From Pristiophorus japonicus (taxonomy: Eukaryota), in assembly GCF_044704955.1 (NCBI RefSeq), contig NC_091992.1:94550001-94614000 (forward strand): 64,000 nt of DNA. The letters are read 5' to 3'. How positions within the stretch are numbered: position 1 is the stretch's first letter; each line of letters begins with the position of its first letter. Positions 43,601 to 64,000 of this stretch are shown here, one piece after another. Under the pieces are notes generated by a model. That model was not told the origin of the DNA, made no database searches, and worked only from the letters and a program-made list of their open reading frames with translations. The position numbers and the translations under genes are program-made.

Positions 43601-43675
43601 TCATGGATTATGTGTCTCGCTTATTTTTTTTTCCTATTACTACTATATTTAGATTAGTATAACTGCCTCTGATAG

Positions 43676-43896
43676 TGTGATGTATGTAGCACTCAAATCA
43701 CTGACTCCACACAGTCTGGTGTTGTAGTAACTGGTGTGACCTTAGTCCTTTATTGTGCAACTCCAAAGTGCCTCTCAGGTGTGGTGGGCAGCCTTTTATA
43801 CTCTGTCTTGCAGGTACTTTCAGGTCTCCCACCACAGCGCCCTCTGTGGCGCACCATTGTACTTATACATTTAATGTACCTGGACAATACATAACA
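43676..43896 (-). repeat. 3' LTR
   Basis: Direct repeat of 46563-46783 with 4 mismatches by eye; preceded on the minus strand by the PPT GGAACTGGGGGGGGAGTGAGA (43897-43917). Confidence 0.95.
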
Positions 43897-44870
43897 TCTC
43901 ACTCCCCCCCCAGTTCCAAACGCCATTGCCAGTAACCTCGGCCTTGTTCGTCCTGGTTGATTTGTGAGTGTGAGTCCATGACCATCCACTCCCCTCTTCC
44001 CCCCCATGTGGATATTATACTTGCGATCCGGTGCAAGCATGTGGTGTTTGCAGTCCATGGGTGATGAAGTACATGAGCATAACCTCCAACAGAAAGCAGG
44101 TATACATAGACAGTACATTTGTATGGTACATATAATATATGGTACAGATGTTATGTCAAAAGGTTGCAGGTACACTGAACAGTTATTTAATCCCAGCTCC
44201 TCTGGATGAGGTACGGTGGCGGTATACTGTCCCTTTTTGTCCGAGGTAATGGGCTGCACTGAGACAGGGTATCGCCACTAGTGCGTTGCCTCTGTTCTCA
44301 GAAAGTAGTCGCCTTAGCAGCTCATCTGCAGCCGCTGAACCATTGCATGAATCACATAAGTCGAAAATCGCATTAGTCCATCAGTCATGTTAGTCACGGA
44401 TGCATTACCCTTTTACTTGTACCTCGTGGTATTAACTCTTTTCATAATTCATATCCATTATTTTAAACACAGTAACCATTCAGCATTAAAATATTAACTC
44501 TTATCATAAATCCGTCATCCTACAATCACATTGCTCATTTAGAGTCGCTCTTGTCTTACAAAAGTCTCTTTGTGGGGACTCCCGGGTGCATTTCCCTTTT
44601 AAGACGCCATCTTGTGTTTTCCACGAGGCTTACACTGGGCGCCGCCATTTTAGTTGCTCTGCTTGCCTTTGTTCTGCTTGCCTTTCTCTGCAGAGCTCTG
44701 CTGCCACGAGGCTCGCCACCATCTTGAGCTCGCTGGCGTGATGTTTTGCTCTCTTTGTGCAGTTGTGGATGGAGTTTAAAGAAGGAATAGAAGGAATAAA
44801 GAAAGAAGGAAGAAAAACGGCCAAGAACAATTTGATCTTGACTCTGGCAGAAGTGGTTCTTTGGATTCGA

Positions 44871-45260
44871 TCAGTCATAGTCCCTGTGAGAGTGGCCTCC
44901 GTAAATGCTGCCATATCTGCCGCTCTGGCTCTTGTACCCTCCCGAGTAATCGCGTTCTCCCGAGTCACATCGGCTGCCGCCGTAGCCTCCGCCGCCACTG
45001 TAGCCTCCGCTCCTGTCATTGTCCCCATAACTGCCACCTCTCCTGCGGCCGCCGTAGCCGCCACCACCGTAGCCGCGACCGCCGCCCGACTTTTTCTCCG
45101 CGTGGACTTGCCGGCCATCGGTGGATTTCCCATTCATCACCTGCAGCGCCCCGCCAGCTCGCACCTCAGCGATTGGCCTGTACTTACAAAACTGCTCTTC
45201 CCGAGTCTGCTCATCTGTATGGGAATTTAGACTGCCGATGAACTGCTTCTTTTTCCTCCA
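44871..45260 (-). pseudogene. Intronless CIRBP/RBM3-like segment inside the LTR element
   Basis: KQFIGSLNSHTDEQTREEQFCKYRPIAEV (cf. RBM3 KLFVGGLNFNTDEQALEDHFSSFGPISEV), MNGKSTDGRQV (cf. CIRBP MNGKSVDGRQI), Gly/Arg/Tyr tail ending HRDYD*; the RNP1 segment is deleted. Confidence 0.85.
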
Positions 45261-45289
45261 GCTTGGTTGGCGCTGCTCTTTGGGAACCC

Positions 45290-46527
45290 AGGGGACAGCG
45301 GTCTGTGGAGGAATGAAGTCTTCCCAGCTCCCACGGACCTTCCCCATCCACCTCCTGCTGAGTAGCGTCAGCCCATCGCCTGCAATGATCCACAAAATAA
45401 ACCAAGCGTTTCGCCCCCGAGAGATACCTGCACATCTGCTCTTCAAGGAACAGGTATCAGTTCCCTGGTGTAGGTGCGCAGCTTCGCTGTGACCGGGACC
45501 AGCTTGGGTCGCGCAGCTGGGTTGACCCACAGTTTATCAAAAGTTTCCTCACTCATCAACGACAGACCCGATCCAGTGTCCACTTCCATACTCACGGGGA
45601 CTCCGTTAAGCTTTACTTCCATAATCACTGGGGCCGAATCGTCGGTACACGTATACAGTCCAAACGCTTCATCTTCTACTGCCTGCTCCTCGCTGGATTC
45701 CTCTACCATCTCCTCAGCCACACGGTGAGTCAGGTTTTTTTTGCACATACGCTGAAGGTGGCCTTTCGTGTGGCAGGCATTGCACGTATACACCGCAAAC
45801 CTGCACCGGTGAGCCCCATGGCTTCCTCCACAGCGCCAGCATGGTGCACTCGACTAGCCCCCCTCGGCGGACTCTGAGTTCCTAGACCCCGAGGTCCGTG
45901 CTCTCTATCCTGGGCAGAGCCATGTTCTGCAGTTTTGTCCGTGGCGGGCGCTATCCTGTGGACAGTGCCTGCCGTGTTCGAGACTGTGTGGATCATCTGC
46001 TTGGTGCTACAAGTCGAGGTCATAAATGCCCTGCTGATGGTGATGGCTTGCATCAGGGTGACTGTAGGTTCAGTGGATAGCAGCTTGTGAAGGAGACCCT
46101 CATAGCCAATCCCCATAACAAAAACGTCTTGCAATGCCTCGTCAAGGTGTGTGCCAAAATCACACGGCGCCACGAGTCTCCTGAGGTCTGTAGCATATTT
46201 GGTGACATCCTGGCCCTCAGGTCTGCAGTGATGGTAGAATTTGTGCCTGGCCGTGAGGATGCTCTCCTTCAGTTTCAGTTGGTCACGAATGAGTTCGATC
46301 AGCTCCTCATACGACTTGTCCCTGGCGCTCGCGGGTGCCAGCAAATCCCTGACGAGACAGTAAACCTCATCGTCACAACTGGAAAGCAATATCGCCTTAC
46401 GCTTCTCTCTCAGTGCGTCCGTGCCCCCCGTCAGGTCGTTTGCTGTAAAGTAGTACTCGAGCCTTTCCGTAAAGGCCTCCCAATCACTGCCCACCGTAAA
46501 ATCCTTTAATGAGCCCAGAGTAGCCAT
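45290..46527 (-). pseudogene. gag-protease of the LTR element (disrupted)
   Basis: MATLGSL..DWEAFTERLEYYFTAND; twin knuckles CWRCGGSHGAHRC and CNACHTKGHLQRMC; protease VDTGSG and LWIIAGDGLTLLSRRW. Frameshift at ~45850, stop at 45443-45445, frameshift at ~45398. Confidence 0.9.
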
Positions 46528-46545
46528 GGTTGAGTGAAGCTTGTC

Positions 46546-46562
46546 CGTGTCCTCTTTGCCAA
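46546..46562 (-). promoter_or_regulatory. Primer-binding site, probably tRNA-Ser(GCU)
   Basis: TGGCAAAGAGGA right after the 5' LTR; 10/12 match to TGGCGACGAGGA, the recalled complement of the vertebrate tRNA-Ser(GCU) 3' end. Confidence 0.65.
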
Positions 46563-46783
46563 TGTGATGCATGTAGCACTCAAATCACTGACTCCACACA
46601 GTCTGGTGTTGTAGTAACTGCTGTGACCTTAGTCCTTTATTGTGCAACTCCAGAGTGCCTCTCAGGTGTGGTGGGCAGCCCTTTATACTCTGTCTTGCAG
46701 GTACTTTCAGGTCTCCCACCACAGCGCCCTCTGTGGCGCACCATTGTACTTATACATTTAATGTACCTGGACAATACATAACA
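46563..46783 (-). repeat. 5' LTR
   Basis: Direct repeat of 43676-43896; on the minus strand it has a TATAAA-like box and AATAAA. Confidence 0.95.
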
Positions 46784-48004
46784 GATAGCATTTATACAAT
46801 CTTCAGCAATCCTTCATAAATAACTGAAATATTTTTGGAGAAATTCTTCTGTGTTTTTTCTCATATGTAATCACACAATGGCAAGGATTGTTATGTTAAA
46901 TATGTTCTCATTTATACATTGAAAACGATCATCGCTATAATTAGATATCTCAAACTCATTATGAATTCCTGACTCACGTTCCAATTATGTTCACAGACCT
47001 GCAGATCTGGTTGATAAAAAAATCTTCAGCTTACTTTATGCCAAATCAGGAAACATTTTCCATTCCATTTGCAGATGATAAATTCCTACCAACAACATTG
47101 ATGCAATATGTTGTTTTTTACCTGGACCTAATAACAGCCTGCATTATAAGTTAAGATTCTTGTACCGTTTATTAAAACAATATTTAATTTGATCCTAAAT
47201 TATGGCCCTCTCATGGCGTAACTCACATTTAATCATTTAATCATGGTAGACATTTGTGTAAGATGCCATGAGTGATAGTGGGGGGTCAGTTAAACTTTAG
47301 GTTTAATATAGGCAACATCGGAACGGCAGCCCGTTCTACCCCATTATTGAATGTCCTTTCCAGGAAAATCGCGGGAGATGTATAAAGGGCTTCCGATCCT
47401 AAATTACTCATTTTACACCATTATCAAAAGTCCAAATTACCCCCATTGAAGAAAGTGAAAATTGGTTCTTGGGGAATTTAGCCTATCAGAACAAATGGAC
47501 AATGATCAACTATTTTTTGAGTGGACCATTCAGTGTAAGTGAAAGGAGGTGAATCGTTTTTTTATTATTTCCTGGAAAAAGTGACTTCGTCCGAAAAGCA
47601 AGACAGATGTCATGGTGCGACAATCTCAATTAAAATGTATTGTCTGCTTTCTGCATTTCCTGTCTGATAAGTCACACTTCCTTTGTTACACTTCAGGTGT
47701 CACACTTTGGGATCATTTATTTATAGGCGTAAACTTCATTTTCATAAAAGAGTAATAAATCAGAACACAGCAGCAGGGGATGCACAAGTCAAAGGCAAAC
47801 AAAGGATTAGAAATCTACCACTGAGGAAGTACAAAGCACATGTGAAAACAAATATTAAGAATGAACAGCAAGGATGGCTTCAAAACATCCTAAACTTAGT
47901 TTGGGATCCCAACTTGAATTCCCCCCCACCCCCGCCGCCCCCCACCCACCCCCCCCCCCAAGTATGAATTTATAAGTAAAAGTAACAACTATAACTCAAG
48001 AAAC

Positions 48005-57515: not shown

Positions 57516-58408
57516 TCATTTCAATTTCAGGATGTAGTGAGTGTCTGAGGACCCGCTGACATCGAGACAGTGCAGCGTCTGTTCCTTCTGCACAAAACCA
57601 AACTGCAGGTGGAACGAATCTTCCTTCGCCATCTGTCCCCCACAGAGATCTTTTTGATGGAGGGCAGGTAGTTCAGGACGGTGCTCGATAGCATCGCCAC
57701 TCCAGTCTTTTCCAGGCTCAGCTCCTGCAGGGCGCCTAGGCCATCGAACACCGCCACGTTCAAGGATTTCAGCCTCGGGTTGCGCGACAGGTCCAAGATT
57801 TGGAGGTTCTGCAGCCCCTTGAAGCTGTTGGGAGACAGCGCGCTCAGCTCGGGAAGACCGCGGAGTGACAAGCGGGTCAGCTCCTGCAGCCCGGTGAAGA
57901 CATTCTTGGGAAGGCTGGAGATGGCGTTGCGGTCCAGGTCGAGATAGCGCAGCGGGATGTCGGAAAGGTAGTGGGTCAGCACAGATCACAACCCCGACAG
58001 GTTCAGGCTGTAGATGTTGGGGACGCTTTTGTCGAGGCTTCGGATGACAGTGGCAATGAGATTGCCAGAGAGGTCCACGCTGAGCGGCTTCCTGTGCCCC
58101 TTGGACGTGAAGGCATCCAGATTGATCTCGCAGAGCTCGTTGTGGCTCAGGTCGACCTCCCCGAGAGGCAGGTTGGAAAAGATTCCCTCTTCCAGCGCCT
58201 CCAGGGAATTGTGACTCAGGTTCAGCACCTCGAAGTACCGCAGTTTGGAGTGCTGGCGGACATGCCGGTGATCTCGTTGTAGCTGAGGTCGAGACTCACC
58301 AAGGTGGTGTAGCCGGGCCCTGTGAACATCAAGGGGGAGATGGCCTTCAAACGGTTGGAAGACAAGTCCAGGTAAGAAGTATCCAATGGTATGGGCACCA
58401 CAGTGAGA
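57516..58408 (-). pseudogene. TSKU: Tsukushi (TSKU)-like small leucine-rich proteoglycan gene, disrupted
   Basis: VPIPLDTSYLDLSSNRL..GPGYTTLVSLDLSYN..LRYFEVLNLSHN..PLRYLDLDRN..LDLSRNPRL..LHCLD, colinear with human TSKU. Frameshift at ~58250, in-frame TGA at 57986-57988, deletion/frameshift at ~57635. N-terminus not visible. Confidence 0.85.
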
Positions 58409-59325
58409 AGGGAAGGGTAANNNNNNNNNNNNNNNNNNNNNNNNNNNNNNNNNNNNNNNNNNNNNNNNNNNNNNNNNNNNNNNNNNNNNNNNNNNNNNNN
58501 NNNNNNNNNNNNNNNNNNNNNNNNNNNNNNNNNNNNNNNNNNNNNNNNNNNNNNNNNNNNNNNNNNNNNNNNNNNNNNNNNNNNNNNNNNNNNNNNNNNN
58601 NNNNNNNNNNNNNNNNNNNNNNNNNNNNNNNNNNNNNNNNNNNNNNNNNNNNNNNNNNNNNNNNNNNNNNNNNNNNNNNNNNNNNNNNNNNNNNNNNNNN
58701 NNNNNNNNNNNNNNNNNNNNNNNNNNNNNNNNNNNNNNNNNNNNNNNNNNNNNNNNNNNNNNNNNNNNNNNNNNNNNNNNNNNNNNNNNNNNNNNNNNNN
58801 NNNNNNNNNNNNNNAAGGGAGGGGAAAAGGAAAGGGGAANNNNNNNNNNNNNNNNNNNNNNNNNNNNNNNNNNNNNNNNNNNNNNNNNNNNNNNNNNNNN
58901 NNNNNNNNNNNNNNNNNNNNNNNNNNNNNNNNNNNNNNNNNNNNNNNNNNNNNNNNNNNNNNNNNNNNNNNNNNNNNNNNNNNNNNNNNNNNNNGGAGGG
59001 GAAGGGGAAATGGAAGGGAAGGGGAAAGGGGAGGGAATAGGAAGGGGAAAGGGAAAGGGAAGTGAAAGGGAAGGGGGAAAGGGAAAGGGAAGGGAAGGGG
59101 AAAGGGGAAAGGGGAAAGGGGAAGGGAATGTAAGGGAAAGGGAAGGGGAAGGGGAAAGGGGAAGAGAAAGGGAAGGGGAATGGGGAATGGGGAAGGGGAA
59201 GGGGAAGGGAAAGGGAAGGGAAAGGGGAAAGGAAAGCGAATGGGAAGGGGAATGGGGAATGGGAAGGGGAAGAAGGGGGAAAGGAGAAGGGAAAGGGAAG
59301 GGAAGGGAAAGGGGGAAGAAAGGAA
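58409..59325. repeat. (GGGAA/GGGGAA)n polypurine tract with N gaps (58421-58814, 58840-58994)
   Basis: Low-complexity purine strand contiguous with the tail of the adjacent SINE. Confidence 0.9.
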
Positions 59326-59745
59326 ACTTGCATTTATATAGCACCTTTTAACGACCTCAGGACATCCCCAAGCTCTTTACAGCCAATGAAGTACTTTTGA
59401 AGTGTAATCATTGTTGTAATGTAAGAAACGCAGCAGCCAATTTGCGCACAGCAAAGCCCCACAAACAGCAATGTGATAATGACCAGATCAATCTGTTCTT
59501 TAGTGATGTTGGTTGAGGGATAAATATTGGCCCCAGGATACTAGGAGAACTTCCCTGCTCTTCTTTGAAATAGTGCCATGGGATCTTTTACGTCCACCTG
59601 AAAGCAGACAGGGCCTCGGTTTAACGTCTCATTCGAAATACGCTCCCTCAGCTCTGCACTGGAGTGTCAGCCTAGATTTTTGGGGCTCAAGTCTCTTGAA
59701 CCCACAATCTCCTGACCCAGGCCAGATAGTGCTACCCACCCAGCC
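59320..59745 (-). mobile_element. Deu-domain SINE
   Basis: Same family as 17138-17578. Confidence 0.85.
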
Positions 59746-62120: not shown

Positions 62121-63459
62121 CTGTGTGTTCAAATGGGACCCAGCAGATAGCTTCTTATAATAGGTATAATAGTTTGATTACCAACAGACGAGTTTGTGGA
62201 TTTTTCCTTCTCCTCCAATCATGTTAAAAAAAAAGGCTGAGCTAATTCTTACCATGTTAATTAGTCAAATGCCAAGGCTCTTTGTTTGCCCACCTTAAAA
62301 TCTTTGTGTATACTTGTAGTTATTGTTTGACATGTGGTGATTATACCCTGGGAGGTCTGAGCCATCCTCCAGACAAAGAAAGTTTACTTTACCCAGGAAA
62401 AGTTTGCCAAAGCTAATGAAAAGTGACCTGTTATCTGTCAGTGCGTTTACAAGTGTGAGATAAGTCGACTCAAAATAATGACCACTTAAATTAAATATGG
62501 CTTACTGCAATATAACTGCATCAGCCAGTAAATTTAATTGGAAAGATAAGCTGTTCATGCTTGGTGCTTTTTTCCTTTAAAGTTCACTTATTCAGATCAT
62601 GTAAACAATTTAAACTGACCTGAACATCATGAGCATACGTGCAGCGACACTTCAGAAGAGCTAAAGATCCACAGCAACAGGAGTAACATGCAAATACTGC
62701 AGATTACTTTTAGTGCATTATAGACCCACATAAATGGACTTTGCTAGCAGATACCAACTTTTAAGTGGGCAAGATTATCAAATGTGATAAACAGAAATAA
62801 AGATGTTTTTACTTGATTGTATTTAGAGTTTCCTGTCAGCAGGCTAACTATTACCTTAAACTTGAGCAACTTGTCAAATTCAAAACAAAAAGAGCATTTG
62901 AGGCAGAATTATATTGAATGAAGAACAGTGTCATTCCTGCTTGTTTACTTTCTTCACTATTATCACAAGTGTATGAAAAGGATGCTGAGGGTTAGAGGAA
63001 GTCAGAGAGTAGTACTTGCCTTGCAATTGTTCACACAGGATCCAAGGGAATAGGGATGAGAAATGGATCTCCACCCTTCTAAAATATATAAAGCCCAGTT
63101 CAGGGGTGGCAACTACCATTAAAGTGCACTATCCCTTTGTCTTTATTCAGAGATGAATATTGCAATCTACAAAATGTTACAAACTACAGTGCCTTTATCT
63201 TGCAATTCAGTTGCAGTCATTCTTCTACTGAAACAATTGACGTCTCATGTCAGTATTTTCTGATAGGCCTTGTTGAAAACTCTTCAGAATATGGCGAGAT
63301 TGCTTCTTCCATTTCAGATTTATGGAACTAATAAAGAAATGAATGTAAAAGGACTGTTGCAAGGAAAACTCCACCAGCTAACCACCCAAAGCACACTCAA
63401 TGGGATATATTTACAATTTGCAAAGATTTTAATTGTTTTTCCCTCTCTTTTTTTCCTAG

Positions 63460-63848
63460 TGGATTAACGCACAATGGTCACTCCAGAGAAGTAGAACAGG
63501 TGTACCTGCGCTGTTCCGAAGGCTCACTGGAATGGTTGTATCCTACTGGAGCCCTAAGGGTTAACTTAAGAACCAATATAGCAACATCCTCCTACAAAGA
63601 CTTGACTGTTTGCGTTAAGCCTTTCAAAGACTCCAAGGGAGCTAATATTTATTTGGAAAAAGTTGGTGATCTGAAACTTCTTGTGAGTGAAGAGAATCAC
63701 ACCCCTAACAAGGTGTATTGCTTTGGAATGGACCAGGGGGCACTCTTTATCCAGGCCACCCCTCAGATGGACATAAGCAGAAAAATCACTGGCTTCCAGT
63801 ATGAATTATTTAAAGACAGGACTGTTGCAGCTTTACACAATACACCGG
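63460..63848 (+). CDS. METRNL: Meteorin-like protein, coding exon 2
   Basis: 389 nt, ttttcctag|T..CCGG|gtaagc; GLTHNGHSREVEQVYLRCSEGSLEWLYPTGALRVNLR..LFIQATPQMDISRKITGFQYEL. Phase matches exon 1; synteny with B3GNTL1 supports orthology. Confidence 0.95.
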
Positions 63849-64000
63849 GTAAGCAATAGATATGGGTTGCTGTCACAGCTTTGGCATGATCTTACTCTCT
63901 GTTGCGAATGACATATTGGTTGTCAGAAGCCAATCAATAATCAATAGATTTTTGACTTGAAATTACAGTTTCTACTTGGGGTAAATGCCACAGTGATGGC

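Follow-up and report, generated by a model that had tools for sequence, protein, structure and literature searches.

The element at positions 43676..46783 (minus strand, 3,108 nt) of a 64,000-nt stretch of the Pristiophorus japonicus genome, hereafter the window, raised the question of how sequence resembling cold-inducible RNA-binding protein (CIRBP) came to lie in frame behind the Gag and protease of an LTR retrotransposon, and whether it serves the element. The element is a damaged member of a high-copy Gypsy family with Gag and protease but without pol, and it carries in-frame pieces of two intronless CIRBP-like genes, probably taken from mRNA through two successive template switches and probably carried as passengers.

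Structure of the element

The initial annotation had reported intact LTRs, primer-binding site, polypurine tract and target-site duplication, and all of these were confirmed. The 5' LTR (46563..46783) and 3' LTR (43676..43896) are each 221 nt long with TG...CA ends, differ by 1.8%, and are flanked by the target-site duplication CTATC (46784..46788 on the 5' side and 43671..43675 on the 3' side; all features of the element are on the minus strand). The primer-binding site lies at 46550..46561, and in the family form it complements the 3'-terminal bases of a genomic tRNA-Ser(GCT). The polypurine tract (43897..43917) is G-rich and ends at 43897.

The gag gene (45750..46527), of the K02A2.6-like Gypsy type, starts with an ATG at 46527 and has two CCHC zinc knuckles (45841 and 45784). 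The aspartic protease (45315..45640) has its DTG motif at 45580 and matched Asp_protease_2 in Pfam (E = 2.9e-5); both genes were as described. Three lesions were found where they had been placed: gag is frameshifted near 45847, and the protease has an in-frame stop at 45445-45443 followed by a second frameshift near 45397. From the protease end the frame is open, as claimed, through the insert to a stop at 44873-44871.

Behind the protease lies an element-derived linker (45249..45314) that cargo-free members have too. The host-derived part runs from 45248, at codon 6 of the host gene, to about 44832. The initial annotation was correct in calling it CIRBP-like, but the start given for it, at MNGKSTDGRQ, was too far downstream. 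The first segment (45206..45248) is a remnant of a first capture, with RRM codons 6 to about 14-19 of paralog 1 (the gene L031) and element-derived changes. The rest belongs to a second capture from a gene of the L032/L034/L035 type: an RRM part (45087..45205) with a 69-nt deletion (RNP1) at 45158/45159, a Gly/Arg/Tyr tail up to the host stop codon (44871..45086), and about 40 nt of host 3'UTR (44832..44870). Neither poly(A) nor a duplication was found at either end of the insert, in agreement with the initial annotation. The host 3'UTR is followed by a pyrimidine-rich spacer (44736..44831), gained before the second capture and without a match among the host loci compared, and by a 3' non-coding region (43918..44735) common to the whole family, in which no pol remnant was detected.

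A high-copy Gag-protease family without pol

The family gag-protease gave seven protein matches, including a full gag-pol protein (E = 1.6e-77); one relative was named K02A2.6-like. The family is a K02A2.6-like Gypsy LTR retrotransposon, a group that we take to be Mag-type. It shares with these elements a two-CCHC Gag and a protease in one frame, 30-38% identity to full gag-pol and a 5-nt target-site duplication. It differs from them in the absence of RT, RNase H and integrase and in a variable Arg/Gly-rich tail after the protease.

The reported absence of RT and RNase H holds for the family: tblastn searches for pol (RT, RNase H, integrase) returned no match inside 87 elements (91 copies minus 4 without two usable LTRs) and matches in 30 of 30 control loci. 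Pol matches at eight sample loci fell outside the LTR-bounded or aligned part. Four family members (L057, L061, L099 and L100) sit inside or beside the pol genes of other Gypsy elements. Autonomous K02A2.6-like relatives are abundant, the nearest ones seen being about 58% identical in DNA, and a genome search for a cognate autonomous partner returned distant families only (30 loci). The family would make its own particles and borrow RT and integrase from autonomous K02A2.6-like relatives.

The junction region of the window element returned 2,383 genomic candidates, and all 40 that were scored span the same junction. Among 30 family loci fetched, 28 had both LTRs, 19 of these with a perfect target-site duplication; perfect 5-nt duplications were present in 46 of the 87 elements, and 45 of the 46 differ. 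The same junction is found in multiple LTR-bounded copies, a check that the initial annotation had put forward. A 23-mer from the protease end had 1,010 exact genomic matches (control, 0) and was present in 16 of 29 independently found copies, which leads to an estimate of about 1,800 copies for the family; cargo-bearing copies are estimated at about 1,000. Exact junction patterns identified at least 26 window-type and at least 103 first-capture copies. A protein search with the junction region gave three matches, two cargo-free family members and one distant polyprotein, and says nothing on absence in other sharks.

We sorted copies by reading into cargo-free (D), first-capture (C), window-type (A) and strongly eroded (E) groups; group B is a single copy that has the second capture with a full-length RRM. 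The sample was drawn from the first 62 matches listed for contig 1; it comprised 60 of them, the remaining two being window-type, and contained 25 D, 4 C, 5 A, 14 eroded A and 10 E copies and 2 unclear ones. CIRBP-derived cargo was present in 33 of the 60 (Wilson interval 42-67%), and 9 of the 10 E copies still match the host tail. The initial annotation had the host module replacing pol. This is not supported, because the 25 cargo-free members are likewise without pol and the first capture is located in the low-complexity tail of an element of that type; the captures probably did not replace pol.

Donor genes

To judge from sequence similarity the insert is homologous to CIRBP, as had been proposed, being 86% identical in DNA to a host gene that bears the name CIRBP B-like; its best PDB matches are CIRBP, but weak (E = 0.22). 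An RRM search located a cluster of five intronless CIRBP-like genes (L031-L035) within about 350 kb on contig 7 (219.41-219.77 Mb). One of their products is identical to a sawshark protein named cold-inducible RNA-binding protein B-like, and relatives of that name occur in other sharks, rays and a chimaera. Our literature search, outside subscription journals, found no paper on these genes. Identity of the insert to the genes was 86.3% for L034, 85.2% for L032, 84.9% for L035 and 77.1% for L031. The intron-bearing CIRBP gene sits apart from the cluster, on contig 18, and was rejected as donor, the insert having no significant match to two of its exons. Since the donors are intronless, intron loss is unable to prove an RNA step.

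Two captures and a chimeric RRM

First-capture copies hold 78 nt of the L031 5'UTR together with the front half of its RRM, which breaks off within RNP1. The captured stretch starts 30 nt downstream of a TATTTA box (hand count), and the motifs upstream of this box are presumably CCAAT- and GC-box-like. This start would fit RT copying to the mRNA 5' end, the transcript start being predicted from the TATA-like box only. RT would have jumped onto the paralog-1 mRNA at a short match in RNP1, copied it to the predicted 5' end and then jumped back. Later C copies gained the spacer.

The captured host start codon was altered in 24 of the 25 first-capture copies measured (L041-L050 and L142-L160), which may reflect selection against an internal start or a single early change. 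Behind the half RRM of four copies (L041, L042, L047 and L146) stands another spacer, which may be a third piece taken up. Cargo-free copies such as L098, L064 and L096 have adjacent CT and GA repeats where the first capture took place; these fold into a hairpin (predicted energy -46.9 kcal/mol for 110 nt) at which RT may have paused. On contig 13 (111.6-112.2 Mb) four first-capture copies follow one another at intervals of about 200 kb; they and one on the small contig C4195 have equal frame lengths, and the contig 13 series is likely a segmental tandem repeat. Tandem expansions within the cargo were also seen: about ten 21-nt units of the RGG region in L052, repeats in L151 and a duplicated RRM piece in L142.

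In the single B copy, 213 nt of linker and UTR are gone, and the second donor's full-length RRM, tail and 3'UTR are present. The insert of the window element as a whole begins at codon 6, passes the stop and takes in about 40 nt of 3'UTR, minus 69 nt of the RRM including RNP1. The RRM of both A and B is chimeric: up to CDS nt 40 it shows L031 alleles along with changes derived from C, and from nt 58 the alleles of the second donor, which places the crossover between host CDS nt 40 and 58. At three diagnostic sites in codons 7-9 the L031 allele was present in 31-33 of 33 window-type copies, which also share three element-derived changes with first-capture copies; at five diagnostic sites from codon 20 onward the second-donor allele was present in 31-33 of the 33. 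The second switch thus returned inside the first cargo. In the proposed mechanism RT would have jumped onto the 3'UTR of the paralog-2 mRNA and returned within the first captured RRM, which would have supplied the homology. The initial annotation had described one CIRBP-like host module and missed that there were two captures, from two paralogs. Both captures are in sense orientation, with short matches at their ends and no poly(A).

The host CIRBP-like protein matches RRM_1 at 89.9 bits. A natural fusion protein of the family had no RRM_1 match, with 23 codons including RNP1 deleted and RNP2 altered, and the RRM is destroyed in window-type cargo. CIRBP B-like genes have an RRM and a Gly/Arg/Tyr tail, whereas the captured form is without start codon, RNP1 and RRM_1 match. 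A non-autonomous family did capture and spread a host piece, as the initial annotation had suggested; the description of that piece as an RNA-binding module did not survive.

Order of events

The copies probably form a ladder, from no cargo to the 5'UTR and half RRM of paralog 1, to the capture from paralog 2, to loss of RNP1 and finally to erosion. After the second capture the cargo would have lost RNP1 and eroded while the family kept spreading. Trees built from gag-protease only gave the series D, C, A/B, eroded A and E, with several forks well supported and many weak, and the B copy with its full RRM changed place between trees. The host sequence polarises the steps from C to E, and the D-to-C step is unrooted. 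LTR divergence overlaps in all groups, with medians of 3.2-5.3% in groups with several copies. E has the closest LTRs (median 3.2%) and has lost the RRM and the host stop while keeping the Arg/Gly-rich stretch.

The overlap in LTR divergence would also suit another order, which we regard as possible but rather unlikely: the founder would already have held a CIRBP piece, later deleted in the cargo-free members. In that case the loss of pol and the first capture may have been close in time or one event. Rooting with 12 autonomous relatives gave tied site counts and placed the root on the longest branch, which leads to the eroded end (E) and not to the cargo-free side, so that the cargo-free members could be losses. 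In addition, the capture site of cargo-free members has a short stretch like the host 5'UTR, and the cargo is bordered by a 5-nt repeat. Against this order, the least changed cargo, that of the one C copy in 25 that has kept the host ATG, sits on a D-type backbone. The long CT/GA hairpin repeats are kept in cargo-free copies and reduced in capture-bearing ones, and divergence from the host rises along the ladder. We prefer a cargo-free start of the ladder.

Reading frame of the Gag-protease-cargo fusion

None of 33 window-type copies had a complete frame from ATG to host stop; one was without the ATG and one stopped shortly before the host stop. A further copy, picked for its long frame, is unbroken over 553 aa from ATG to host stop, which bears out the single Gag-protease-cargo polyprotein that had been predicted from repair of the three lesions. 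Of 28 A copies that could be measured, 16 have protease and host stop in one frame. An out-of-frame first capture was considered and rejected, since 8 of 16 copies of the early type and 8 of 9 of the later type are in frame. Two sister copies have a common stop ahead of the cargo; a common cargo frameshift in the same pair was rejected after alignment, which showed separate private events.

Contigs were available from four sequencing runs whose kind is not on record. Three runs showed a depth peak over the CIRBP-like part with host-type loose ends, and short contigs from them cross the protease-cargo and RNP1-deletion junctions. One 201-nt contig from a run labelled as another organism crosses the 3'UTR-spacer junction. 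These observations were not counted as evidence.

Selection on gag-protease and on the cargo

We counted omega without CpG transitions and scored a change as shared when it was present in three or more copies. For gag-protease in A, omega was 0.97 for singletons versus 0.26 for shared changes (Fisher p = 1.8e-5). It was 0.36 between D and E and 0.96 between C2 and A (13 N, 5 S), and neither D nor E taken alone gave a significant result for shared gag-protease changes. Of 90 copies, 88 retain the catalytic Asp. Purifying selection acts on gag-protease, from which we infer that the family needs its own Gag and protease.

For the cargo, comparison with the host gave 15 N and 7 S (omega 0.77, p = 0.63) in a test of low power. 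Omega within the cargo was 0.41 for shared changes (12 N, 11 S) and 0.68 for singletons, which is no difference (p = 0.26). The cargo is likely a tolerated passenger in an open tail and not a working RNA-binding module. It would be tolerated in the Arg/Gly-rich open tail behind the protease; long Arg-rich tails are found in cargo-free members too.

We think it unlikely that, after the same capture history, the Arg/Gly-rich tail was selected as an RNA-binding or condensate add-on that aids RNA packaging or RT competition, the folded RRM being dispensable. A fuller version appears similarly doubtful, in which the first piece was a homology handle for the capture of the paralog, the RRM was shed, and the tail was kept in frame as a selected RNA-grabbing extension that hijacks the RT of other elements. 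Shared tail indels kept the frame in 25 of 37 cases versus 6 of 21 in non-coding DNA (p = 0.006), and 10 of 13 shared indels of at least 4 nt in window-type tails did so, which would suit a selected tail. However, cargo-free tails show the same in-frame bias (11 of 17 shared indels; p = 0.69 against window-type), and singleton tail indels were in frame in 69 of 138 (p = 0.065). The large lineage-defining deletions ahead of the RGG region (72, 213 and 69 nt) are all multiples of three, and three unbroken E tails hold 2-4 RGG and 8 RG motifs compared with 1 and 3 in the host tail; cargo-bearing members make up more than half of the 60-copy sample. Against a selected tail, 5 N and 1 S separate the RGG region from that of the host, 25 of the 60 sampled members are cargo-free, and the stop common to the two sister copies lies ahead of the cargo. 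The passenger reading is retained.

Relation to known capture systems

LTR-mediated retroposition has been described in flies and vertebrates as partial host mRNA within an LTR element, with microsimilarity at the switch points and without poly(A) or an inner target-site duplication (Tan et al., 2016; PMC5131818). That report gives cases from zebrafish, chicken, mouse and human, and describes the retrocopies as sense, often in frame, sometimes from two parental genes, and further retroposed as non-autonomous elements. The shark cargo has the same features: a partial transcript in sense orientation, microsimilarity at the junctions, and neither poly(A) nor an inner target-site duplication.

Capture was favoured over LINE-mediated insertion by the initial annotation, and the junctions and the dozens of LTR-bounded copies lead us to the same view: insertion of a processed pseudogene by a LINE into an LTR element already in place, or else a duplication at the DNA level, for which one could cite the abundant LINE fragments in the window and the intronless donors, is highly improbable given the absence of poly(A) and of a duplication around the insert, the 3' truncation at 40 nt of UTR, the paralog crossover inside the RRM, and the different target-site duplications of those copies.

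The mechanism is already known as LTR-mediated retroposition, and serial capture has a precedent in maize Bs1. The retrocopies described by Tan et al. replaced part of the element ORFs, whereas gag-protease in the shark family is still under selection (PMC5131818). Two fly retrocopies in that account have more than one insertion site, with 18 sites for nine retrocopies, and such few re-amplified copies contrast with the estimated 1,000 copies of the shark cargo. The second shark capture used long homology with the first, unlike the microsimilarity of the cases described there. Bs1 is likewise an LTR element in which several successive host-gene captures led to a chimeric ORF (PMC13317346); Bs1 took up three unrelated genes and is reported there as transcribed and translated, whereas the shark family captured two paralogs, is from a vertebrate and is known from sequence alone. 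With only Gag and protease between its LTRs and multiple copies, the family fits the TR-GAG-like type. TR-GAG elements, with only Gag or with Gag and aspartic protease, are described from plants, and host cargo is not part of the definition given in that source (PMC6022998).

We found no paper on this family in a literature search that covered sources other than subscription journals and repeat libraries. The same search returned no report of serial homology-guided paralog capture with preserved intermediates and high-copy spread in a selected vertebrate gag-protease family. Template-switch capture is usually known from single end products. Here each step persists as its own subfamily. The sequence of steps and the crossover are thereby directly readable, and one capture seems to have enabled the next. 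The family is also a vertebrate instance of selection on Gag and protease without pol.

The family shows that LTR capture can disperse pieces of an RNA-binding gene, here an estimated thousand, across a vertebrate genome. RRM and CIRBP annotation is contaminated by them: in the RRM_1 search many among the 150 matches listed cover profile positions 1-43 only, and all 10 such loci that were fetched are elements. The dispersed pieces could in principle also feed small RNAs back on the donor genes.

Elsewhere in the window, an exon-like frame at 63335-63859 (plus strand), without a Pfam match, presumably resembles a meteorin-like protein. A leucine-rich-repeat coding sequence lies at 57527-59347 (minus strand; LRR_8, E = 7e-19), where it is interrupted by a pyrimidine-rich repeat and masked stretches.
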